From an uncultured Anaerolineales bacterium (GTDB taxonomy: Bacteria > Chloroflexota > Anaerolineae > B4-G1): a stretch of 64,000 bases of DNA. The notes beneath the pieces are model-generated. The model made no database searches, was not told the DNA's origin, and saw only the letters and a list, made by a program, of their open reading frames with translations. Shown here one piece after another: positions 1,308 to 62,544 of this stretch. The position numbers and the translations under genes are program-made. Positions within the stretch are counted from its first letter, which is position 1. Every line of letters begins with the position of its first letter. The stretch is from assembly GCA_964575455.1 (NCBI GenBank), contig CAZNRX010000001.1, positions 112,527 to 176,526 of the forward strand. The letters are read 5' to 3'.

Positions 1308-2807
1308 ATGGGTGAGCCCAAGCGGTACAAGTACGAGCGCATAGCGGACGACATTGATCACCTTATCGCGTGCGGCGCGTTCAAGCCTGGCGATCGCATC
1401 CCCTCCGTGCGGGAGATGAGCCGCCAGCGAGATGTCAGCATCTCCACCGTCCTCAAGGCCTACTACCTGCTGGAGGCGCGCGGCCTCATCCTGGCGCAGC
1501 CACGCTCGGGGTTCTACGTGCGCAGCGACCTGCCCAGCGACCTTCCGGAACCGGAGATATCGTCGCCGGGGCCCGACCCCACCCAGGTCAGCATGCGGGA
1601 GCTGATCTCCATGGTCGTTCACGCCGAGACCCTTCAGCCTGACCTGATTCAGCTTGGCGCCGCGCACCCCAACCCCTCGCTGGCGGCCACGGAGGAGCTC
1701 AACCGGATGCTGACCTCCGTCGCGCGCCGCATGGGCGACGCCGGCGGCCTCTATGACTACCCGCCGGGGTGCGGGCGGCTGCGCATGCAGATCGCACGTC
1801 GGTATCTGGTCAGCGGATGCAGCCTCTCGCCAGACGATATGATCATCACTTCCGGCTGCTCGGAGTCGGTTAACCTCTGCTTGCGGGCGGTCTGCGAGCC
1901 TGGGGACGTGGTGGCCATCGAGTCGCCCATCTGCTTCGACGCCCTTCAGACGCTGGAGGCCATCGGGCTGCAAGCGCTGGAGATCCCGACCCATCCGCGT
2001 GACGGCATTAGCCTGGATGCGCTCCGCTTCGCCATCGAGCACAACGACGTGAGCGCCTGTATGGTGATTTCCAACTTCAACAACCCGCTGGGCAGCTGCA
2101 TCCCGGATGAGAACAAGCGGGCGCTGGTCGAGCTGCTGACCGAGCACGGCATCCCGCTGATCGAGAACGACATCTTTGGCGAGCTCTACTTCGGCGACTC
2201 GCGTCCCTCGGTGGCGAAGGCGTACGATCGCGAGGGGTTAGTGATGCTCTGCTCTTCCTTCTCCAAGAGCCTCTGCCCGGCTTACCGGGTGGGCTGGGTG
2301 GTGCCCGGACGCTATTACGAGACGGTCGAGTGGCTGAAGTACACCTCCAGTCTGGCCGCCCCTACGCTGTCGGAGCACGCCATCGCCGAGTTCACGGCCA
2401 GCGGCGGCTATGATCCCTACCTCCGACGCGTCCGGCGCGCCTACGAGCGCCGCGTGGCGGCGATGTCGCAGGCGGTGCGGCGCTTCTTCCCGGAGGGTGG
2501 GTCGACGCAGTCACCCAGGTCGACGCAGTCATCCGGATCGACACAGTCATCCGGATCCACACAGTCATCGACGAAGATCACTCGGCCCGCGGGTGGCTTC
2601 GTGCTCTGGGTGGAGCTGCCGGCGTCGGTTGACTCGCTGGTGTTGTACAAGCGGGCCTTGGAGGCCGGGATCGCCATCACGCCCGGCTACCTCTTCTCCG
2701 CTACGGATCAGTACCGAAACTTCATCCGCCTCAACGCAGCCAACTGGTCCGACGAGGCCGAAGCGGCCATCAAGCGCCTGGGGTATCACGTCACTAGAAT
2801 GGCTTGA
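1308..2807 (+). CDS. MocR/GabR-family transcriptional regulator: GntR-type wHTH fused to a PLP-dependent aminotransferase-like domain.
   Basis: N-terminal 'IPSVREMSRQRDVSISTVLKAYYLLEARGLI' HTH motif followed by an aminotransferase class I/II fold-type domain ('SFSKSLCPAYRVGW'). The ATG at 1308 sits 8 nt after TATAAT (1295-1300), suggesting a leaderless start. The listed ORF begins at 1089, but that upstream part looks like non-coding leader. Confidence 0.85.
   Translation: MGEPKRYKYERIADDIDHLIACGAFKPGDRIPSVREMSRQRDVSISTVLKAYYLLEARGLILAQPRSGFYVRSDLPSDLPEPEISSPGPDPTQVSMRELISMVVHAETLQPDLIQLGAAHPNPSLAATEELNRMLTSVARRMGDAGGLYDYPPGCGRLRMQIARRYLVSGCSLSPDDMIITSGCSESVNLCLRAVCEPGDVVAIESPICFDALQTLEAIGLQALEIPTHPRDGISLDALRFAIEHNDVSACMVISNFNNPLGSCIPDENKRALVELLTEHGIPLIENDIFGELYFGDSRPSVAKAYDREGLVMLCSSFSKSLCPAYRVGWVVPGRYYETVEWLKYTSSLAAPTLSEHAIAEFTASGGYDPYLRRVRRAYERRVAAMSQAVRRFFPEGGSTQSPRSTQSSGSTQSSGSTQSSTKITRPAGGFVLWVELPASVDSLVLYKRALEAGIAITPGYLFSATDQYRNFIRLNAANWSDEAEAAIKRLGYHVTRMA
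2502..2573 (+). repeat. In-frame 18-bp x4 tandem repeat (tcgacgcagtcaYccRgR) inside the MocR CDS, encoding STQSPRSTQSSGSTQSSGSTQSS.
   Basis: Four near-identical 18-nt units are visible directly. They fall in a loop just before the conserved 'PAGGFVLWVELP' segment. Confidence 0.9.
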
Positions 2808-6156: not shown

Positions 6157-9100
6157 TCAGGTCGCGGCAGCTTCCAGCAATCTCTCCACTCGGTACTCGG
6201 ATGCTGCCTCGGCTGCCTGTAGCGCCTCGATCACCTCGTAGCAGCTCGTGATTCTCTCGGCCGACGCCCGCTCCGGATCTGCGGCGATCGCCACCGTGGC
6301 GACCACCATCATCCACCACAGCAACTGCTCGAATGCCTCCTCATTGAACCAGAGCACGTCCTGGTACCGGTTGACCTGGAGGAAGCGCTGCACCTCGTCG
6401 TCCTCCAGCCATGAGCGAAGCACCTGGAAGGGCCGGTTCTTGGAGCCCTCACCTAGCTCGAACCAGCGCTGGTGCGTGGTCAGCACCTTGATGGTCGTCA
6501 CGGCCCACCAGGACGATCTCTCGTCGAGGCCCAGGTCCTGGATGGCGCCCGCCGTGATCTTGCCCAGGAGCCATTCGTCCTGCCAGCTGCGGCTGATCCC
6601 CGCAAAAGCCCTCGGTGACTGCGTCGCTCCCGCCTCCATCCTGCCCAGCGCGTGGCTGAAAAGCCAGCCCAGCAGCGTGGACCAGGCCCGGGGATCGTCG
6701 TCTAGGCCCACCTCCGGCACCTCCGTTGGTCCGTCCTGGATGTACTCGGCCACGTGGTCCGGCACCGACAGGCGGCTGCCTATGGTGGGCAGATCCCAAA
6801 CCACCTCCAGCTCCCGGCGTATCTGCCGGGCCAGCGACTCCTCATCGTCACCGCCGTCGGCCCGCGACTTGATCTCTTGGAGAAGCCGGAGCGTTTGTGC
6901 CTCCACCTCGTCTGCCAGCTCCTCACGTCCCTCTGCTCCTCTGCCCCTCTGCTCCCCCGCTCCTCCGCTCTCCTGCTTCCTGGCCTCCATCAGCCTCCGG
7001 AACGTCTCGGCGTTAACCAGCTCCCGAAACGGCCCATGCACCGGCTGGAGGAGCACCTCCTTGAGCGCTTCGTCGATGCTGGGGACCCCGCGTCCGTCGA
7101 GGTAGGCGGTCAGCTGGCCGTAGGGGCGCTCCACTGAGTCGCGGACCTGGCGGAAGTCGAGGAAGACGTGGTATTTGTAGGCGCTTAGCTCGGCGTACAG
7201 CCCTTTCCCGTGCAGGTCCTCGTTGCTGCGGATGTACTCAAGCCCGTTGACGTGATCCCGGAAGATGGTGTAGGTCTTAGACCCATTCTCGTCGTCGCGC
7301 AGATCCAACCCCTCGCCCAGCGATCGCTGAACCAGCTGTTTCTCGTCCTCCCCGGTCTTAGCCGCTTCGCTTCCACGGACCGCGTAGGCGACCGACGTGC
7401 GCACCCAGCCCCGCGTCTCGGCGTACCGGTTGTGGTAGAGCACCAGAGCCCGCTCGTCGCCCACGTGGTTGGAGTAGGCGAAGACGTCCTCGTTCACGTG
7501 GCCGTCGGGCGTGAAGAAGTCGTAGAGCAGAAAGTTCTCGACGTCGGCGAAGAGATACCGCTTGTGGAGCAGCGGGAAGATCTCCCGCTCGTGGCGCTCC
7601 ACCAGGTAGGTGTCCGGGGTCTCGTCCCAGTAGGCGCGGCGGTACTCCATGCCGTACTTCTCCGTGTACCCCTCAACCTGGCCATGGCCGAACATGGGCA
7701 GGCCTGGCACGGTGGCCAGCATGGTGCAGATGCCGAAGTACTTGTCGCCCTTGCCGAACTGATCCACGGCCGTGCGCTCGTCGGGGTTGTTCATGAAGTT
7801 GACGTAGCGCTTCATGATGCGCGGATCGAACGCCAGGGTGTTCTTCATCACGCTGCGGTACTTGGCGTTATCCTCGTCGCGCAGCATGTTCATGAAGGCG
7901 CTGTTATAGACGCGGTGCATGCCCAGCGTGCGCACGAAGTAGCCCTCCATCAGCCAGAACGCCTCGGCCAGCAGCAGCGTGTCCGGCACCTCCTCCGCCA
8001 CCCGGTCCACCACCTGGCGCCAGAACTCCTCCGGCATGAGCTCGTCCAGCTGCTGCCTGGTCATCCCGTGCTCCGCTCGCGAGGGGATGTCGCCGCCGGA
8101 ACCAGGCTCCGGGAACCAGAGCCTCTGGTAGTGCTTCTTCGCCAGCGTCATGGCCGCGTCGAAGCGGATGATAGGGAACTTGTGCGCCACGTGGAGGATC
8201 ATCTGAATCACGGCCTCGCGCACCTCCTCCTTCAGGAAGTTGAGCTGCGCCGTGTCGTTCCACGGCATGCTGGTGCCGTCGTTGCCGTGGTAGATGTACC
8301 GCTCGTCACCGGTCCAGTGGTCCACACGTTTGAAGACCACGGCGGCGTCGCTGCGGTCGTAGTAGCCGTCCTCCAGGTAGATCCCCACGCGATCGTCATT
8401 GCACAGATCCTCGCCGGTGAAGGAGTAGGACGGGAATGGACTGTAGTCCAGCGAGATGAAGCGCTCGGGGTGCTCGATCACCCAGCGGGAGTCGATGCCC
8501 ATGTGGTTGGGCACCATATCGCTGGCCAGCCGGATGCCCCGCCGCCAGGCGCGGTCGCGCAGGCTCTGGTACCCCTCTTCGCCGCCCAGATCGTCCGCCA
8601 CGCGGTAGTCGTCCACGGAGTAGGCGGAGGCCACCGCCTCGGGGTTGCCCATGATCTGCTTGATGCGCTGCGAGGCCGAGCTCCGCTCCCACAAGCCGAT
8701 GAGCCATAGGCTGGTGAAGCCCCGCCGGGCCAGGATGTCCAGCTCCTCGTCCGGTATGTCACCCAAACGGGTGATTGAGCGTTCATACTTCTTCGAAAGC
8801 TGATCGAGCCATACGTAGATGTTCTTGGCCAGCAGCACCACCTTCGGCATCCAGTCCTGGTCGGGGCTGAAGCGCTCATACTCTGCCTCCCTGAACTCAT
8901 AGACCCGGCTCGGACCGGGGCCGAGGAAGGTGGCCTTCTCCTCCTCGGCGATCAGGTCCAGGCTGCTGAGCAGACGATAGAGATACTTGCCCAGGAGCGA
9001 GCCCCAGCGCTCCTGCATGAACGCCAGCTGCCCCGAGAGGGAGTGGGGCGATCTGCGGGCGGGGGCGCTCAACATGTCGATCAGGTTCTCGTGGTCGGGA

Positions 9101-25234: not shown

Positions 25235-26727
25235 CGGGAAAGCGTCTGACGCTGGCGGACGTCCTGGAGGGCCTACGGGTGTCGTCCACCGCCGTCGACC
25301 AGCGGCCTGAGGCGCTGCGGCAAGAGATAACGACCGTCGTCATCGATTCCCGCAACGCCAGGCCCGGGGCCTTGTTCTTCGCCTTCGAGGGCGAGCACGC
25401 GGACGGGCACGACTACGTGGGAGACGCCTTCTCTCGGGGGGCCGTCGCGGCCGTCGTGCAGCGCGACGTGCCCGGGGTTGACGCTCTCACGCTGGATTTG
25501 ACGACCCGGGACGCGAAGGGCACTCGAAGCGCGCTGTCGGGAGGGCTGGAGGTGCCGCTGGTGCTGAAGGTCGATCAGACGCTGCCAGCGCTGCAGCGTC
25601 TGGCCACCTTCTGGCGGCGATGTCAGGTCGGGCTGCGCGTCGTCGGTATCACGGGGAGCGTCGGGAAGACCACCACGAAGGAGCTAGCGGCGGCGGTACT
25701 CGCCCGTCGCTATGCGACGATCAAGAGCGAGGCCAGTTATAACAACGAGATCGGCCTGCCGCTGACGCTGCTCCACGTGACCGCCGACCACGAGCGTGTT
25801 GTGTTGGAGATGGGGATGTATGACCTGGGCGAGATCGCGGATCTCGCTCGCATCGCTCAGCCCCACATCGGCGTGGTTACCATCGTCCGGCCGGTGCATC
25901 TGGAGCGCGCTGGGTCATTCGAGCGCATCGTGAAGGCCAAGACGGAGTTGGTCAGCGCGCTGCCGCCCGGGCCGGAGGGCGTGGCGATCCTGAACTACGA
26001 TGATGAGAACGTGCGGAACATGGCCGGAGCGACGGAGGCTGACGTCTTCACCTACGGGTTGTCTCCCGAGGCTGATCTCTGGGCTGATCAGATCGAGGGG
26101 TTGGGGTTGGAAGGCGTCCGCTTCCGGCTCCATCACGAGGATGAGACCCTCCACGTGAGGGTGCCGCTCCTGGGGCGGCATTCCGTCCACACCTCGCTGC
26201 GCGCCGCCGCGGTTGGCCTGGTCGAGGGGCTCACCTGGCAGGAGATTGTGGAAGGCCTGCGGGGCGTGGAGCCATCGGATCAGCTGCGGCTGGTGGCCGT
26301 GCGAGGCCCGGCCAGCGCCACGATCCTGGACGATACGTACAACGCCAGTCCGGCCTCAACTATCGCGGCACTGAACTTGTTGGACGAGTTGGAGGGGCGA
26401 AAGATCGCTGTCTTGGGCGACATGCTGGAGCTGGGCGACTACGAGCGTGAGGGACACGAGAAGGTCGGGATGCGCGTGCTGGAGGTGGCCGACGTGCTCG
26501 TCACGCTGGGATCGTTAGGGCGCATCATCGGCGAGACCACGCTCCGTTGGGGGATGTCGCCCGACGCCGTCCACGTGTTGGAGGAGAGGGAGGAGGTCGT
26601 TCGCCTGTTGGAGGATATGTTGGAGGAGGATGGGGCGCCGCGATCCGTCGTCTTGGTGAAGGGCTCGCGAGCCCTGAGGATGGAGGAGATCGTCAACTCC
26701 CTGAGTCGCGACCTTCCCGAAGGCTGA
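25231..26727 (+). CDS. murF: UDP-N-acetylmuramoyl-tripeptide--D-alanyl-D-alanine ligase MurF.
   Basis: 'GITGSVGKTTTKE' and 'NNEIGLPLTLL' MurF signatures. The GTG start overlaps the ftsI stop (GTGA). No murE precedes it. Confidence 0.85.
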   Translation: MTGKRLTLADVLEGLRVSSTAVDQRPEALRQEITTVVIDSRNARPGALFFAFEGEHADGHDYVGDAFSRGAVAAVVQRDVPGVDALTLDLTTRDAKGTRSALSGGLEVPLVLKVDQTLPALQRLATFWRRCQVGLRVVGITGSVGKTTTKELAAAVLARRYATIKSEASYNNEIGLPLTLLHVTADHERVVLEMGMYDLGEIADLARIAQPHIGVVTIVRPVHLERAGSFERIVKAKTELVSALPPGPEGVAILNYDDENVRNMAGATEADVFTYGLSPEADLWADQIEGLGLEGVRFRLHHEDETLHVRVPLLGRHSVHTSLRAAAVGLVEGLTWQEIVEGLRGVEPSDQLRLVAVRGPASATILDDTYNASPASTIAALNLLDELEGRKIAVLGDMLELGDYEREGHEKVGMRVLEVADVLVTLGSLGRIIGETTLRWGMSPDAVHVLEEREEVVRLLEDMLEEDGAPRSVVLVKGSRALRMEEIVNSLSRDLPEG

Positions 26728-33672: not shown

Positions 33673-33888
33673 GGATCATCAGGAGGGCGGATCACTGATA
33701 GGGCGCTTGAGGGGGGTGCGCAAGCGGAAGCGGAGCCGGTCGGCGGGTGACCGTGACCCGGGTGGCGGTGTCGATCCCTATGCCTGCAGCGTGGTGGCGT
33801 CCAAGATGAAGCTGGTGAAGGCTGGGCGGAGGCGCGATGCCGGCCGGCGGCGGGATCTCCGTGGCTGACCAGCGACAGCGCCTCGGCG

Positions 33889-36981: not shown

Positions 36982-37075
36982 AACGGGACACGAAAGGCGC
37001 GAAGAACGACACGAAAGGCGCAAAGCACGACGCGAAGGACGCGAAGGATGAAGGGCACGAATGGGGTGCAGACCG
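36982..37075 (+). repeat. Phased CACGAA-type direct-repeat array (21-bp units 'gacacgaaaggcgcgaagaac' x2 plus degenerate copies) in the ftsQ-ftsA gap.
   Basis: Units at 36988-37008 and 37009-37029 differ by 2 nt, then 'gacgcgaaggacgcgaaggatgaagggcacgaatgg'. CGAA cores recur every 10-11 bp. Confidence 0.85.
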
Positions 37076-37116: not shown

Positions 37117-38337
37117 GTGGAACGAACGGTAGTCGGTATCGATGTCGGCTCCAGCAAAATATGCACGATGGTGGGAGAGGTCCGTGATAACGGCGACCTG
37201 CGTGTCGTCGGCGTTGGCCTGGTCACGGCGCGTGGCCTGCGCAAGGGCGTGGTGGTCAACGTGGATGAGGCCACGGAGGCACTCGCCGCCTCGGTCGCTG
37301 AGGCCGAGCGCTCCTCCGGGTACAAGCTTGAGCGGGCCTATGTGAGCGTCAGCGGCGAGCACATCTCATCGCTAAACAGCCAGGGTGTGGTCGGTGTCTC
37401 CCATCGCCGTTCAGGCATCACCATCGATGACGTGGAGAGGGCGCTGGACGCCGCTTGTGCCATCACGGTGTCGCACAACCAGGAGGTCATCCACGTGATC
37501 CCGCGTGGCTACGTGGTCGACGGGCAGGGCGGCGTGCAGGATCCCATCGGCATGCACGGCTTCCGCCTGGAGGTTGAGGCTCACCTCGTCACGGCCTCCT
37601 CCACGGCGATCCAGAATCTGTTGAAGTGCGTACGTCAGGCCGGCCTGGAGGCCGACGAGGTCGTCTCGGCGGGGATAGCCGCTGGCGACGCCGTCCTGGC
37701 GGAGACGGAGCGTGAGATGGGGGTGGTGCTAGCCGATATCGGCGCTGGTACCACCGACGTGGCTATCTTCATCGATGGCACTGTGTGGCACACGGTCACG
37801 CTGGGCATCGGTGGCGCCTACGTCACACAGGACATCGCCATCGGGCTTCGTCTGCCTCCGTCTGTCGCTGAGGAGATCAAGGTGAAGCACGGACATGCCC
37901 TTCCGACTCAGGTGGACAACGACGAGGTGTTCACCGTCTCCTCCTTCGGCGACGAGTTCAGCCAGGAGGTGCCGCGGTGGAAGCTGGCCAGCATCGTTCA
38001 GGCGCGGGCTGAGGAGATTCTCTCCATGATCAACAAGGAGATCAAGCGCTCGGGGTACGACGGCCTGCTGCCGGCCGGCGTGGTGCTCTCCGGTGGCACA
38101 GCGCAGCTCCTCGGCATGCGAACCCTGGGGCGGCAAGTGCTCGGCCTGCCTGTGCGCCTGGGCAGCCCCAGGAACCTCCATGGCCTGGTCGATGCCGTCA
38201 GCAACCCGGCGCACGCCGTGGGGGCGGGATTGTTGACCTGGGGGAGCACGGAGGAGGCCCGTCCACAGCTCAAGGTCCGGCCCGGGCCTGGCGGCGGGGC
38301 GCGCATCCTCAAATGGCTGCGGACGTTGCTTCCGTAA
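37117..38337 (+). CDS. ftsA: Cell division protein FtsA.
   Basis: 'VVGIDVGSSKI' actin-fold phosphate-1 motif and 'DIGAGTTDVAIF' phosphate-2 motif. Confidence 0.92.
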   Translation: MERTVVGIDVGSSKICTMVGEVRDNGDLRVVGVGLVTARGLRKGVVVNVDEATEALAASVAEAERSSGYKLERAYVSVSGEHISSLNSQGVVGVSHRRSGITIDDVERALDAACAITVSHNQEVIHVIPRGYVVDGQGGVQDPIGMHGFRLEVEAHLVTASSTAIQNLLKCVRQAGLEADEVVSAGIAAGDAVLAETEREMGVVLADIGAGTTDVAIFIDGTVWHTVTLGIGGAYVTQDIAIGLRLPPSVAEEIKVKHGHALPTQVDNDEVFTVSSFGDEFSQEVPRWKLASIVQARAEEILSMINKEIKRSGYDGLLPAGVVLSGGTAQLLGMRTLGRQVLGLPVRLGSPRNLHGLVDAVSNPAHAVGAGLLTWGSTEEARPQLKVRPGPGGGARILKWLRTLLP

Positions 38338-38430
38338 CGCGAAGGGCACGAAACAGAAGACGAAGAGCGTGAAATAGAGCACGAAGGGCACGAAGCACGA
38401 AACACACGAAACACTATGGGCACGAGATAG
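38338..38430 (+). repeat. Second phased CACGAA/CGAAG repeat array (ftsA-ftsZ intergenic region).
   Basis: 'cgcgaagggcacgaaacagaagacgaagagcgtgaaatagagcacgaagggcacgaagcacgaaacacacgaaacac' with cores spaced ~10 bp. Confidence 0.85.
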
Positions 38431-43149: not shown

Positions 43150-43272
43150 GGTGCGTTGGTGCATTGCACGTGCCGTGCGTGCGGGCCACCTGGCGGAGTA
43201 CGGTGCGTTGCACGTGCTGTGCGTGCGGGCCACCTGGCGGAGTACGGTGCGTTGCACGTGCCGTGCGTGCGA
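43150..43272 (+). repeat. Tandem repeat, ~44-bp unit x2.7 (ggtgcgttgcacgtgcYgtgcgtgcgggccacctggcggagtac), each copy carrying the palindrome GCACGTGC.
   Basis: Copies at 43150-43201 (with an 8-bp internal duplication), 43202-43245 and 43246-43272 (partial). GCACGTGC at 43166, 43210 and 43254, exactly 44 bp apart. Confidence 0.9.
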
Positions 43273-43313
43273 CGCATCTGGAGCAGAGCAGCGAGCTGCA
43301 CGTTTGGAGATAC

Positions 43314-47041: not shown

Positions 47042-48058
47042 CTACACCACCTCCACGTTCAGCGCGGAGAGGACCGCGTCGATCGGGTTGAGGATCGTCG
47101 CGGCCGGTGACCCCGCGAAGAGCAGGCCCACCACGCGCTTCTCCATGTCCAGCACCGCCGATCCGGAGTCCCCACCCTCGCTCATGGGGCTGGCGATCAA
47201 CTGCCCCGTGAAGAGCGCCTTCGGGCCGTAGTAGTCGATGCGCACCGTGGCGTCGACCTGGGTGATGGTCCCCTTGGTGTAGCCCGTGGTCCGGCCTGAC
47301 TTCTGCACCTCGGTCCCCAGCGACGCTGTGCCGACGCCCACCGGCGTGCCAATGCCCAGGATCTCGTTGGTCACCTGATTCGGCGAGAGCGGTCGCGCCA
47401 GAGCGGCGTCCACTCGATTGGCCGCCTCGCTCCTCTTCACCGCCTCGAGCTCGTGGCGCGACCCCAGGGCCCCTGCGATGACGTTCATGAGCTTCGCCGT
47501 CCAGTCGGCGATGTCGCACTCGGACGGCTCCGAGTCGAAGATCAGAGGCACGTACTCCGCCAGCCTGGCGATCCGGTCCTCCGGCCCGCCACCGTCCGCG
47601 GATCCGGGCTGGAGGATCGGGTCCCAGATCTCGCACGTGTTGGTGTTGGCGAGCACATGGTTGTTGGAGAGGATGAACAGCTCTTCGTCGCGGTGTACCA
47701 GGCAGCCGAACGTGCCGGCGGTGATCAGGTAGTGTCCCACAGAGACGCCGGGTGGGATGACCGGTCGCCAGCGGTCTTGCGGCCCCAGCTCCTCCCCTCC
47801 GGAGGGGAGGGCGCGCAGCAGCCCCGTCTCGACCACATCTGTCTTGACGTTCTCCACCTTCGGGGGCACCAGATCTCGTGCCGTCAGCGCGGCGGCTGGC
47901 TCCTTGTGCGTCACCGAAACCACGACGCTCAGCTCCCCGGTGTTCTCCCCTTGGCTTACCTTGTAGCCCAGGCCAACGCCCACCACGTTGCGCTTCCCCA
48001 GTAGATCGACGGCATGCGTCTCCTTGGCGCTTTTCGCCTGAGCGAGTCCATGCACCAT
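47042..48058 (-). CDS. Chymotrypsin-fold (S1-like) serine peptidase with an N-terminal ~90-aa accessory domain.
   Basis: Candidate triad His 'GHYLITAGTFGC', Asp, and Ser 'GDSGSAVLD'. AGGAGGTGA RBS. The N-domain 'NVVGVGLGYK...ELSVVVSVTHKEP' is paralogous to the upstream small ORF. Confidence 0.7.
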   Translation of the reverse strand: MVHGLAQAKSAKETHAVDLLGKRNVVGVGLGYKVSQGENTGELSVVVSVTHKEPAAALTARDLVPPKVENVKTDVVETGLLRALPSGGEELGPQDRWRPVIPPGVSVGHYLITAGTFGCLVHRDEELFILSNNHVLANTNTCEIWDPILQPGSADGGGPEDRIARLAEYVPLIFDSEPSECDIADWTAKLMNVIAGALGSRHELEAVKRSEAANRVDAALARPLSPNQVTNEILGIGTPVGVGTASLGTEVQKSGRTTGYTKGTITQVDATVRIDYYGPKALFTGQLIASPMSEGGDSGSAVLDMEKRVVGLLFAGSPAATILNPIDAVLSALNVEVV

Positions 48059-57145: not shown

Positions 57146-57186
57146 CTTCCGTTAGATACGAAGAGCGCGAAACACGGAGGCACGAA

Positions 57187-58161
57187 TCATGAAGGCCTCG
57201 AATCGTAGGGGGGCGAGGGCTCTACCCCGATCGAATCCGCCAATTCCTTCAGCTGTGCCATGGCTTGTTGCAGCGTCGCTTTCATCTGGGAGGCCCGCAC
57301 CTCAGAACGCTCCGCTCCCTGCTGGGCGAGGAATGCCCCTACGCGGCCCAGGGCCTCATTCGCCGCCAGAAACTCGCCCAGGCCCGGGGGACCGACCTGT
57401 CCTGGCTGCAATTGATAGGCCGCTCGCTGCGGGACATCCCACATCTGCGCCTCGCCTGCCGAGTGCGGGCTCGACCACCCGCTTGCCACAGATTCTCCCA
57501 ACTGTGGCAGCGACTGCTGATAGGCGCCGATCCCCAATGACCTCCTGACCTTCTCCTCGACGAACGCAAGAGCGCTGTTATCCCGGACGTAGTTCAAGTC
57601 GTTGGTGTCGATGACCAGCAGAGCCTTCGTGCCCTTCGCGTCCCTTTTCGCGCCTTTCGTGTTCTTGCTGGCGAAGTGGGCCTCGTAAGCCTCTCTCACC
57701 ATAGCGATATAGTCGCGATCCATCTCCCGCTCGTATGGGCGGTCGCGCGCCGCGATGCGCGCCATCAGCGTGTCTGTGTCGGCCTTGAGATAGATCACCA
57801 GATCGGGAACGGCGATGCGATCCGCGAGCAGAGCATATAGCCTTCGGTACATCTCTAGCTCATCGCCCTCCAGGTTCAGACGGGCGAAGAGGGCGTCCTT
57901 GCCGAACGTGTAGTCGCCAATCAGGGGTTTGTTCGCCGTCAGCGACGGTATCTCCTGTTGCTGGCGGTAGCGGCTCAGGAGGAAGAACAACTGCGTCTGG
58001 AAGGCGTAGCGGGCGCGATCGCCGTAGAAGCTTGAGAGGAATGGGTTCTCCTCAAAGGCCTCCAAAAGTAGCTCTGCCTCGAAGCGCGGCTGCAGGAGGC
58101 GGGCCAGCGTCGTCTTGCCCACTCCGATCGGCCCTTCGATGGCCAGGAAAAAGGGTCTCAT
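57187..58161 (-). CDS. Deoxynucleoside kinase paralogue with a ~130-aa C-terminal extension and a repeat-derived internal insertion.
   Basis: 'IEGPIGVGKTTLA' P-loop. An 11-aa insertion 'KNTKGAKRDAKGT', encoded by CACGAA-family repeat DNA, is absent from the paralogue at 53226-53867. Confidence 0.8.
   Translation of the reverse strand: MRPFFLAIEGPIGVGKTTLARLLQPRFEAELLLEAFEENPFLSSFYGDRARYAFQTQLFFLLSRYRQQQEIPSLTANKPLIGDYTFGKDALFARLNLEGDELEMYRRLYALLADRIAVPDLVIYLKADTDTLMARIAARDRPYEREMDRDYIAMVREAYEAHFASKNTKGAKRDAKGTKALLVIDTNDLNYVRDNSALAFVEEKVRRSLGIGAYQQSLPQLGESVASGWSSPHSAGEAQMWDVPQRAAYQLQPGQVGPPGLGEFLAANEALGRVGAFLAQQGAERSEVRASQMKATLQQAMAQLKELADSIGVEPSPPYDSRPS
57623..57662 (-). repeat. CACGAA-family repeat copy embedded in-frame inside the deoxynucleoside kinase CDS.
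   Basis: Reverse complement 'aacacgaaaggcgcgaaaagggacgcgaagggcacgaagg' matches the ftsQ-ftsA unit 'gacacgaaaggcgcgaag'. Confidence 0.8.
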
Positions 58162-61164: not shown

Positions 61165-61380
61165 CTCTGCCCCCTTTTCGTGCCCGTCATTTCGTGGGTG
61201 GTCCCCCTCTTGCATGTTGTTGGCTCATTTTCGCTCATGAGGGATCGTGGGTCGACGCAGTCACCCGAGATCCCGTCCAGAGCGCCGGATAGCCATATCC
61301 GGCGCGAGCAGAGTGGCAAATGTGGCGCGCTGCAACCCAGCAACACGCTACAGGGGGACCACCATTTCGTGAGCTTCGTC

Positions 61381-62544
61381 TCAATTCGTATCCTTCGTGT
61401 TGAGAATCTGACGATACACAGCCACGGTCCTGGCCGCTACGCTTTCCTGCGTGAACTGGCGCAGCACTCTCTCTCGTCCCCGTCTCGCCAGGCGGCGTGC
61501 GATCTCGGGTTCGTGCATCAACCGGACCAGATGGGCCTTGAGCGCTGCGACGTCGCCCTCCGGGAACACCAGACCGGCATCCCCGATGACGTGGGGAATC
61601 TCTCCGCAGTCGGAGCCGATGACCGGAACGCCACACGCCATCGCCTCGATCAGCACCCGCCCGAACTGCTCCACCCAGTTCGGTTGGGAGCGCGAGGGCA
61701 AGACGAGCGCGTCCAACTGCCGGTAGAACGCCGGCATGCGCAGCGACGGCAGCCACCCCTCGAATGTGACGTTGCCGGTCAACCCCAGGTGACGGGTCTG
61801 GGCCTCCAGTGCCTCCCTTTCGCTGCCGTCACCCAGGATGCGCAGGCGCCACGGCCCGGCTTCGAGCGCTGGGCCCTTCAAGTCCCCCACCGCTTCCAGC
61901 AGCAGATCGACACCCTTCTCCGGCACCAGACGGCCCACGTACCCGATGGCAAAGGGCGATCCCGGCGTGGCGCCTCGCACCGGAGACTCCTCTGAAGGCG
62001 ATGAGTTGGAGGGCGTGAAGATGGTGGGATCGACCCCAAACTGGGGGATGATGGCCATCGGCCCTTCGTAGCCCTTGTCCCGCCAAACCTCCGCTGCCCC
62101 CTCGCTGCCCACGATGGCGTAGTTGGTGTTCTGGAGGTTGTAGGACTCGATCAGTCGGAAGGGCAGTGGATACCGTCGGTTGAGGTTCTGCCAGGAGAAC
62201 CAGAGAGCTCGGGCGCTAGCTCGCTTGGCCATCCAGAGGGCGTGGGCCGTGCCGAGGTTGTAGGGTTCCTCATCAATGTGTACCACGTCGGGGGCGAACG
62301 ACCGCAAGCGTCGCCCCAGCCGGGGGTAGATGTGGAGGTGGAAGCTGCCGCTGAACGTGATGGGCTCCACCACCAACTCGTACCCGTCTGTGTGTGCGCG
62401 TTCCAGGTGGAGCACCCGGCTGGCCTCGCGCCAGGAGGGGGGGACGGCGACCATCAGGTCGACGTCGGGAAAGCGAGCGATCTCCTCAAGCTTCCGCTGG
62501 TAGGCGCCCACCAGACAGGCCTTGGAGACCATCAGAACGCGCAT
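61381..62544 (-). CDS. GT4-family glycosyltransferase (GT-B fold).
   Basis: 'EQFGRVLIEAMACGVPVIGSDCGEIPHVIGD' EX7E-type GT4 motif. The last codons (ILNTKDTN*) are encoded by CACGAA-repeat DNA. Confidence 0.85.
   Translation of the reverse strand: MRVLMVSKACLVGAYQRKLEEIARFPDVDLMVAVPPSWREASRVLHLERAHTDGYELVVEPITFSGSFHLHIYPRLGRRLRSFAPDVVHIDEEPYNLGTAHALWMAKRASARALWFSWQNLNRRYPLPFRLIESYNLQNTNYAIVGSEGAAEVWRDKGYEGPMAIIPQFGVDPTIFTPSNSSPSEESPVRGATPGSPFAIGYVGRLVPEKGVDLLLEAVGDLKGPALEAGPWRLRILGDGSEREALEAQTRHLGLTGNVTFEGWLPSLRMPAFYRQLDALVLPSRSQPNWVEQFGRVLIEAMACGVPVIGSDCGEIPHVIGDAGLVFPEGDVAALKAHLVRLMHEPEIARRLARRGRERVLRQFTQESVAARTVAVYRQILNTKDTN

Follow-up and report, generated by a model that had tools for sequence, protein, structure and literature searches.

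The window, i.e. the whole stretch of 64,000 nucleotides of Anaerolineales DNA that was analysed, contains the exact 20-mer GTGGGTCGACGCAGTCACCC twice, at 2497-2516 within the gene for a MocR-type regulator and at 61247-61266 on the upstream side of glnA. We consider it probable that both are copies of a REP-like interspersed palindromic repeat of one Anaerolineae clade, which propagates at the DNA level, lengthens through slippage and persists in disordered protein loops. Sites in other Anaerolineae show that its 18-bp unit, GGGTCGACGCAGTCACCC, has been copied as DNA to new intergenic and intragenic places; short repeats of this general kind, intragenic ones included, are already known in other bacteria. 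The original prediction had recognised the shared 20-mer, with coordinates that have to be lowered by one base, and had regarded the match as too long for chance. The latter holds, as no such pair was found in 100 shuffles of the window and an extrapolation of the decay in exact-match lengths gives about 0.03 expected matches of 20 nt or more. The window's next-longest exact repeats measure 18 and 17 nt.

The array in the MocR-type regulator

According to TRF, positions 2502-2569 hold 3.8 copies of an 18-bp repeat (90% matches). When phased to the unit, the array consists of four head-to-tail units at 2499-2570 on the forward strand, namely GGGTCGACGCAGTCACCC (2499-2516), AGGTCGACGCAGTCATCC (2517-2534), GGATCGACACAGTCATCC (2535-2552) and GGATCCACACAGTCATCG (2553-2570), which agrees with the fourfold in-frame repeat first proposed for this gene. 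From 5' to 3' the units carry 0, 2, 3 and 5 mismatches to the consensus, and the array codes in frame for the entire 24-residue insert GSTQSPRSTQSSGSTQSSGSTQSS.

The host gene (1308-2807, forward strand) was identified by Pfam, orthologue alignment and Foldseek. Its product is a MocR/GabR-type regulator of 499 residues, counted from M74 of a long ORF beginning at 1089, and the three features by which MocR membership was judged are all present: an N-terminal GntR wHTH domain, a C-terminal fold-type-I aminotransferase-like domain (Aminotran_1_2), and the PLP lysine, K320 in the SFSK motif, which is invariant among 51 sequences. GabR, PdxR and KAT-II were the structural matches found by Foldseek. 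As originally suggested, the insert precedes a conserved segment; it is located directly before the TRPxGGF strand. The AlphaFold pLDDT is below 50 over residues 398-419, and the solved homologue 1x0m skips exactly residues 398-422. The insert is thereby predicted to form a surface loop within the aminotransferase-like domain, disordered and without contacts.

The glnA-side copy and the hairpin

The glnA-side copy is a single consensus unit (61249-61266, forward strand), which the GT at 61247-61248 completes to the 20-mer. It is situated 83 nt 5' of the glnA ATG (61164, minus strand), in the 216-nt spacer (61165-61380, minus strand) that was delimited by locus comparison between a GT4 glycosyltransferase gene and glnA. 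Elsewhere the same spacer measures 123 nt (L076), 71 nt (L077) or 12-13 nt (L078, L079 and L080, three related loci from two distinct GlnA clusters). What had been called a glnA leader is therefore, judging from these loci, a lineage-specific spacer and not a conserved leader. As RNA the spacer is strongly structured (fold z = -4.3). An Rfam search of the window and the spacer returned nothing at gathering score and only a chance match at E <= 1, and no sigma-70-like promoter was found near the palindrome. No finding supports a regulatory link between the MocR regulator and glnA.

The unit is itself an 18-bp imperfect palindrome, with a stem of GGGT/ACCC and GAC/GTC, a single bulge and GCA as the loop. 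Folding energies are -2.9 kcal/mol for the 18-nt core and -18.5 kcal/mol (z = -4.6) for three consensus units together. On the glnA side the unit caps an imperfect palindrome of 34 nt, GGGATCGT-unit-GAGATCCC (61241-61274), which was delimited by DNA folding (-9.6 kcal/mol, z = -2.6) and by its recurrence. Intergenic units are often found at the tip of this palindrome; the same hairpin recurs at 32-34 nt in L002, in L004 and in L059 (10160-10186), and L059 has another site where additional units enlarge it. No transposase was found between the two L059 hairpins, the enclosed gene being an ordinary histidine kinase.

The glnA-side hairpin is also enclosed by a 167-bp MITE-like element (61197-61363) with perfect 12-bp terminal inverted repeats, GGTGGTCCCCCT, at 61197-61208 and 61352-61363, and with flanking 8-bp direct repeats, ATTTCGTG, at 61189-61196 and 61364-61371. 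Beyond the hairpin, a second copy of this element was not present in the DNA searched, and the hairpin may either be part of the element or have been inserted into it.

Distribution of the unit in Anaerolineae

The unit was found at about 45 sites in other Anaerolineae assemblies, as singletons or in head-to-tail arrays, which bears out the proposal of a short dispersed element. Within the genome collection the exact 20-mer occurs solely in Anaerolineae MAGs, in three unrelated contexts; two other MAGs carry it. Scanning related metagenome contigs with the 18-mer retrieved about 30 Anaerolineae-like contigs with singletons and arrays of up to four or more units. The 14-kb contig L071 has seven unit sites. 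In the window the density is low, at two sure loci in 64 kb, a point against the repeat reading. A third copy had been proposed in a GH13-like gene of the window at about 6613-6628, and a match does exist there, although a weaker one: GGAGCGACGCAGTCACCG (6613-6630, minus strand) agrees with the unit at 15 of 18 positions, has a 13-nt exact core and encodes ..GATQSPR... Compared with two orthologues it is not a clean indel, so that it may be either a decayed unit or a chance match.

Unit sites are both intergenic and in frame within Pfam-confirmed genes. The confirmed hosts are dnaE, nifU, vanZ and genes for an AddB-like protein, fumarase, GH13, GH15, a GntR/FCD regulator, a Cys/Met PLP enzyme and xanthine dehydrogenase. 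Statements on frame and orientation refer to Pfam-validated sites only, the GC3-based gene calls, which mislabelled several sites, having been left out. At these loci the unit is read in at least three frames, all of them sense: GSTQSP, which is the commonest frame of the intragenic copies, VDAVTR (GH15, the FCD regulator and the Cys/Met enzyme) and GRRSHP (AddB-like). Five of the six reading frames of the unit are open. The use of several frames, together with the non-coding copies, indicates that conservation is at the level of DNA and not of protein. Sense orientation at all 11 of the 11 Pfam-validated intragenic loci could stem either from selection for the peptide or from a mechanism that is strand-specific. 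The intragenic inserts fall in segments that are absent from solved homologues, MocR being the one modelled.

A protein search with a synthetic peptide of seven GSTQSP repeats gave one match above threshold, a blastn search of plasmids with a four-unit array gave one irrelevant match only, and a full-text literature search for the sequence found no paper.

Copy number at orthologous sites

The original prediction also held that the length of the insert could vary between strains. In its favour, copy number differs between species-level relatives (82-92% protein identity), the MocR site containing no unit in 75 of 79 orthologues, one unit in two clusters and four in the window; the segment concerned is not a linker, however, but a loop inside the aminotransferase-like domain. 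The empty MocR site has the sequence GAG|ACG, to which filled sites add exactly n x 18 bp. Variation was also seen in GH13, where the close relative L072 has one unit at a site that has none in the window, and in VanZ, with two to three units on one contig and at least four on another. The empty and filled MocR and GH13 alleles differ by exact 18-bp multiples, and target-site duplications are absent.

The single unit in L074 has two derived bases in common with units 3 and 4 of the window, and around the array the DNA identity between the window and L072 drops from 88-97% to 75-78%. A neighbour-joining tree hinted at three independent insertions at this one MocR codon; we rejected this reading and prefer a recombination patch, with the derived bases being shared. 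The native MocR sequence just 3' of the insertion site, GACGAAGCTCACCCG, is partly unit-like (top 1.3-3.6% of background windows), whereas the empty GH13 site has no likeness to the unit, and microhomology targeting was accordingly rejected as a general rule.

With tandem arrays at many loci and variable copy number at orthologous ones, the unit behaves as a dispersed minisatellite or VNTR, and MocR and VanZ offer ready markers of variable copy number for typing. It does not behave as a phase-variable contingency repeat, since it is six codons long and every copy number keeps the frame.

Comparison with other short repeats

Several known repeat families share some of these properties. Like RPE, the Anaerolineae unit is palindromic, apparently selfish DNA that is found in frame in unrelated genes, and the encoded peptide spares the fold. 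RPE-1 is about 100-150 bp long and present as a single copy per site, whereas our unit has 18 bp in one to four or more tandem copies, and the taxa are unrelated. The MIRU-type VNTRs of mycobacteria also form one family, with tandem arrays at many loci whose copy number varies between orthologues, but MIRU units measure 40-100 bp, lie between operon genes and are not palindromic hairpins. The cyanobacterial STRRs are likewise very short units in tandem arrays scattered round the genome of a filamentous bacterium; they are heptamers and mainly intergenic, and as heptamers do not preserve the reading frame. As to MITEs, only the 167-bp glnA-side element shows terminal inverted repeats and 8-bp flanking direct repeats; the 18-bp unit lacks terminal inverted repeats and makes no target-site duplication. 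The unit also differs from IS200/IS605 elements, as a conserved 4-5-nt target abutting the insertion point was not seen across the 45 sites.

The unit is very small and acts as interspersed repeat and minisatellite both. With it, Anaerolineae join the few lineages that have selfish palindromic DNA inside protein-coding genes, the replicative polymerase gene dnaE included. For annotation, it accounts for odd low-complexity loops in conserved proteins and for swollen intergenic spacers in these MAGs.

Alternative explanations

It is extremely unlikely that the MocR array was born from native sequence by local slippage and that the glnA-side 20-mer matches it by coincidence. The native sequence does resemble the unit in part, and chance exact 16- to 18-mers do occur within the window, but the same exact 18- to 20-mer turns up at dozens of unrelated sites, and in the closest relative it lies in another gene, which effectively refutes this; the GH13 empty site is not unit-like. 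We give just as little credence to an artefact of assembly or of the library, for instance an adaptor-like oligonucleotide in the contigs. Many matches do come from one JGI project (Ga0207796/Ga0207797, the latter being JGI sample 3300027962); copies are nevertheless carried by independent sources (NCBI MAGs, ENA, Logan and other JGI samples), and they show point mutations, graded decay, loop positions and, within genes, invariable retention of the frame. The imperfect palindrome has the size of an operator and lies upstream of glnA, as would be expected of a transcription factor site that controls glnA, with the MocR copies incidental or autoregulatory. This is very improbable, because the entire spacer that carries the motif is missing from the glnA upstream region of five related loci, the motif also flanks unrelated genes, such as those for a corrinoid protein and a histidine kinase, and occurs within coding sequence, and a promoter of the sigma-70 type was not found nearby. 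A functional peptide module, in which GSTQSP would be selected as a flexible or modifiable Ser/Thr-rich loop with DNA identity following from codon bias, would fit the preference for this frame and the consistent sense orientation. We regard it as improbable in view of the near-identical DNA that is also read as VDAVTR and GRRSHP and is common between genes, the large majority of MocR orthologues that have no unit, and a loop that is predicted to be disordered and to make no contacts.

Better placed, although still only a tentative possibility, is a bona fide REP with a GTAG tag that is mobilised by a RAYT, a specific version of the copying mechanism that is compatible with our preferred REP-like reading. 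The likeness to REP/BIME (Di Nocera, De Gregorio and Rocco 2013, PMC3733652) consists of a short imperfect palindrome that is dispersed, mostly intergenic but also in frame in genes including dnaE and those of recBCD-type repair, at times nested in a larger 'target' palindrome, and without target duplication. Both dnaE and recBCD-type genes are known to harbour intragenic REPs, which compares with dnaE and the addB-like gene among our hosts, and the REPs of T. roseum (Chloroflexi) nest in a larger palindrome (PMC3733652). The same paper speaks of RPE-1 as 'longer palindromic insertions'. The unit and its 34-nt form also provide the stem-loop of a REP (an imperfect palindrome of 20-40 bp), and the 20-mer starts with GTGG, to which the GTAG tag of REPs (the other tag being CGTC) can degenerate (PMC3733652). 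Against this, GT precedes the first unit at just eight of the 45 sites, the reverse-strand CGTC is internal to the stem-loop, and an unpaired GTAG or CGTC tag is thus lacking from an 18-bp core whose 7-bp stem is short and bulged. REPs are mostly extragenic, whereas the unit has at least 11 Pfam-confirmed intragenic loci; its copies are mainly direct head-to-tail arrays and not the inverted pairs of REPs and REPINs, and a head-to-tail arrangement is rare in described REP families (PMC3733652). Finally, no RAYT or other Y1 transposase was found by tblastn with an IS200 TnpA query in 660 kb, which is weak negative evidence.

A possible route of spread and growth

If the two 20-mers are indeed copies of a REP-like repeat, the creation of a new copy would need an activity that works in trans on the hairpin, for which a single-strand HUH/RAYT-like nuclease is the most plausible candidate. 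As the array structure suggests, a seeded unit would then multiply head-to-tail via replication slippage, and homologous recombination may shuttle filled and empty alleles among relatives. Given a unit of six codons with five open frames out of six, insertions that land in surface loops would be tolerated and would persist as selfish and probably neutral passengers. At MocR the outcome would be the 24-residue disordered loop in the aminotransferase-like domain.

The arrays are polar, beginning sharply at the 5' edge and decaying towards the 3' edge: a decayed unit (at most six mismatches) adjoins the array on its 3' side at 13 sites and on its 5' side at one. Exact consensus copies are present in lineages with gene divergence above 10%, and a G is found 6 nt upstream of the unit at 33 of the 45 sites and likewise at each of the three empty ones. 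If the unit were an active minimal mobile element of an undescribed kind, a sequence-specific activity would insert it or add units at the 5' edge of an existing array, without target duplication and at a point five bases after a G (GNNNNN|unit). This would account for the consensus copies in diverged lineages, the polar decay and the flank bias, and we regard such an element as rather doubtful. The contrast between the sharp and the decaying array edge, together with the G at -6, provides concrete leads on the mechanism by which transposase-less short repeats spread.

An 18-bp repeat in MocR and its copies in the window

The array-bearing ORF (1308..2807, plus strand) encodes a MocR/GabR-type regulator with GntR wHTH and Aminotran_1_2 domains. 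The tandem repeat that had been proposed at 2497-2573 in this gene was recovered by TRF at 2502-2569 (18-bp period, 3.8 copies, 90% matches); in unit phase it comprises four units (2499 to 2570), which are in frame and encode GSTQSPRSTQSSGSTQSSGSTQSS. The 20-mer GTGGGTCGACGCAGTCACCC occurs in two exact copies as claimed, but at 2497-2516 and 61247-61266, both one base lower than predicted. With regard to the third copy, reported as a 16/17 match at ~6613-6628 in the GH13-like gene, we found a unit-like stretch there, but a weaker one (15/18 positions at 6613-6630, minus strand). A comparable 20-mer pair appeared in 0 dinucleotide-preserving shuffles of the window. Maximal exact repeats of 14, 15, 16, 17 and 18 nt numbered 48, 8, 8, 1 and 1, respectively, and empirical extrapolation from this length decay gave ~0.03 expected matches of ≥20 nt. 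Judged on the window alone, the match is unusual, not overwhelming.

Two further stretches on the minus strand resemble the unit, by chance or as decayed copies: CCACCCGGGTCACGGTCACCC (33742-33769) and TCACCCAGGTCGACGC (47234-47265), which matches the junction of units 1 and 2 exactly over 16 nt. The window also contains a 44-nt tandem repeat at 43158-43303 (2.6 copies, 95% matches; GGTGCGTTGCACGTGCCGTGCGTGCGGGCCACCTGGCGGAGTAC).

Distribution and genic context of the unit

When one genome per species was scanned for the exact 20-mer, three matches were obtained, each in an Anaerolineae MAG and away from the MocR and glnA loci: one within a fumarase beta-type gene (two units 33 nt apart), one intergenic and having 32 nt in common with the window's glnA-side copy, and one within a GH15 gene. 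The 18-mer GGGTCGACGCAGTCACCC was found at 68 loci in metagenome contigs. About 30 of these are on Anaerolineae-like contigs, many from Ga0207796/Ga0207797, where units are single or arranged head to tail in arrays that reach four or more; Ga0207797 (JGI sample 3300027962) also holds close orthologues of the window's MocR and GlnA. Seven of the sites are on a single contig of 14 kb (L071), and several of these flank a corrinoid-protein gene. These additional copies uphold the original prediction of a dispersed element. Some isolated loci in other high-GC contigs were read as chance matches, and ~20 loci represent one unrelated conserved locus in human-gut assemblies. This low-GC locus (L005, L007, L009, L015, L018 and others; ~20 gut metagenome assemblies) has the exact 18-mer between imperfect inverted repeats (..tgcacccggca-unit-ttaacccgtggcaaaaaac..) and was taken as a chance match.

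Many copies are located within real, Pfam-confirmed genes, and numerous others are intergenic. The commonest reading, GSTQSP, was seen in dnaE, whose DNA_pol3_alpha domain contains three units, in a NifU_N protein with four, and in Fumerase_C, GH13, a xanthine-dehydrogenase MoCoBD subunit and the VanZ N-terminus, while the unit is read as VDAVTR in GH15, a GntR/FCD regulator and a Cys/Met PLP enzyme, and as GRRSHP in an AddB-like helicase-nuclease. The sense orientation was found at all Pfam-validated intragenic loci (11/11). Since the unit occupies three reading frames as well as non-coding sites, peptide selection is ruled out as the cause of its identity, and the unit is conserved as DNA, not protein. 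Individual genes can contain the repeat twice, at separate sites (in L053, a Cys_Met_Meta_PP gene; also in L044 and L001); in L044, arrays of opposite orientation are 1.5 kb apart, one in dnaE and the other just beyond its predicted start.

Anatomy of units, arrays and flanks

The unit is an imperfect palindrome with hairpin potential: three consensus units form a long hairpin (-18.5 kcal/mol, z = -4.6); folding of the window's decayed MocR array is not unusual (z = -1.7). Intergenic units often form the tip of a longer palindrome (34 nt; GGGATCG(Y)-unit-G(A/G)(A/G)ATCCC). Such palindromes are found in the window, in contig L002, in contig L004 and twice in L059, where extra units enlarge one of the two. 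Among 45 sites, a decayed unit (6 or fewer mismatches) adjoins the array on its 3' side at 13 and on its 5' side at one, demonstrating that arrays decay in a polar manner, and the MocR array agrees (0, 2, 3 and 5 mismatches).

Moreover, 33 of the 45 sites have a G 6 nt upstream of the first unit (p ~1e-6, related sites removed). As this G is already there at all three empty sites, it looks like a target preference. The flanks revealed no conserved 4-5-nt target abutting the insertion point. Nor is resemblance to the unit a general property of insertion sites: the MocR site falls in the top 1-4% when compared with background windows, but the GH13 site does not resemble the unit.

Orthologous sites

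The number of units in MocR does vary among orthologues (0, 1 or 4). The site is a two-residue turn in 75 of 79 parsed orthologues, one extra unit is present in the orthologue P0004 (GSTQSS) and the P0005 cluster (GSTQSP), and the window has four. The DNA of the empty site is ..GAAGAG|ACGAAG.., to which filled alleles add exactly 18 or 72 bp without target duplication. The unit turns over between close relatives: L072, the window's closest relative (89% DNA identity in MocR), lacks the unit in MocR but has a clean consensus copy (GSTQSP) in its orthologue of GH13, at a site that is empty in the window. Tandem copy number also differs in VanZ, with 2-3 units in one orthologue and at least 4 at the same site in another.

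Filled MocR alleles do not appear to form a single clade in an NJ tree, as repeated insertions at one codon might produce. This explanation was rejected because window-L072 DNA identity drops from 88-97% to 75-78% over ~200 nt around the array, and because the single unit of L074 has two derived bases in common with window units 3 and 4. Around the array, L073, L074 and L075 are more similar to the window than L072 is. The pattern is more simply read as one old insertion, probably moved or removed by homologous recombination. The mosaic patch covers approximately 2388-2570 (MocR alignment columns 1080-1260), where more distant relatives stay at 84-88%, which suggests a recombination tract including the array. 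In L072 (6821-7486), L073 and L075, a Flavodoxin_2/FMN_red gene is located between MocR and the N6_N4 methyltransferase gene; the window lacks it, the two genes being 56 nt apart (2808-2863).

With regard to the protein, phmmer against PDB aligned MocR to a KAT-II homologue (1x0m) in two pieces, and the stretch left out between them is exactly residues 398-422. The AlphaFold model (51 sequences; mean pLDDT 80), which resembles GabR, PdxR and class-I aminotransferases, falls below 50 at residues 398-419, between a long helix (368-393) and the strand from 423 with the conserved TRPxGGF segment. The insert is thus predicted to lie on the surface of the small C-terminal subdomain of MocR as a disordered loop. 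The loop does precede the conserved segment as anticipated; it is not the inter-domain linker that the first reading implied.

Origin of the repeat and relation to known systems

The unit has been dispersed as DNA. Slippage could account for array growth and recombination for the shuffling of filled and empty alleles, and inserts may persist because loops would tolerate a unit that is six codons long and open in five frames. Seeding by a single-strand HUH/RAYT-type activity agrees with the hairpin, the absence of target duplication and the clean empty sites, but is at odds with the direct arrangement of the arrays and with the lack of both a tag and an adjacent target. A tblastn search with an IS200 TnpA query found no HUH/RAYT-type gene in the window and related contigs (660 kb), a weak negative.

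The phenomenon has precedents; new in detail are a unit of only six codons, the polarity of the arrays and the bias in the flank. The classic examples of palindromic inserts in frame are the Rickettsia RPEs, and the Anaerolineae unit works in a similar way to these and to REPs, although the longest RPEs (RPE-1) are far larger. REP elements are 20-40-bp palindromes, which in several species occur inside genes, notably replication/repair genes such as dnaE and recBCD, and in T. roseum (Chloroflexi) are nested in small target palindromes (Di Nocera et al. 2013, PMC3733652). Their GTAG tag can degenerate to GTGG, and head-to-tail dimers are rare (PMC3733652); the Anaerolineae family differs from the REP superfamilies in both tag and arrangement. 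It resembles MIRU/STRR repeats in being tandem and variable in copy number. A full-text search found no published paper containing the unit sequence.

The GT4-glnA spacer

The finding is real and the first reading of it holds in essence; what it shows is a selfish REP-like repeat and not a MocR-glnA regulatory link. The gene order GT4, glnA, PGM is kept in relatives, and the spacer measures 12-13 nt in L078, L079 and L080, 71 nt in L077, 123 nt in L076 and 216 nt in the window (61165..61380). It is a lineage-specific nest of repeats and not the conserved "glnA leader" it had been called, and nothing links it functionally to MocR. The 34-nt unit-bearing hairpin is enclosed by a 167-bp element (61197-61363) that has a MITE-like signature: its 12-bp terminal inverted repeats (GGTGGTCCCCCT) are perfect, and 8-bp direct repeats (ATTTCGTG; 61189-61196 and 61364-61371) adjoin it on both sides. 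Relatives lack this element, and no second copy was found in the window and the related contigs compared. Folded as RNA, the spacer shows strong structure (z = -4.3); it matched no Rfam family, and no consensus promoter or terminator was found in it.

The extra DNA of the window's spacer includes short ACGAA-type repeats. These ACGAA/CGAAG-type repeats constitute a second dispersed family, in both orientations, with periods of 7-9 and 21 nt (e.g. GACACGAAAGGCGCGAAGAAC x3), located at 25508-25523, 36987-37060, 38337-38425, 57155-57190, 57625-57665 and the spacer edges (61166-61196 and 61364-61400). Of these, 36987-37060, 57155-57190 and the two spacer edges are apparently intergenic.
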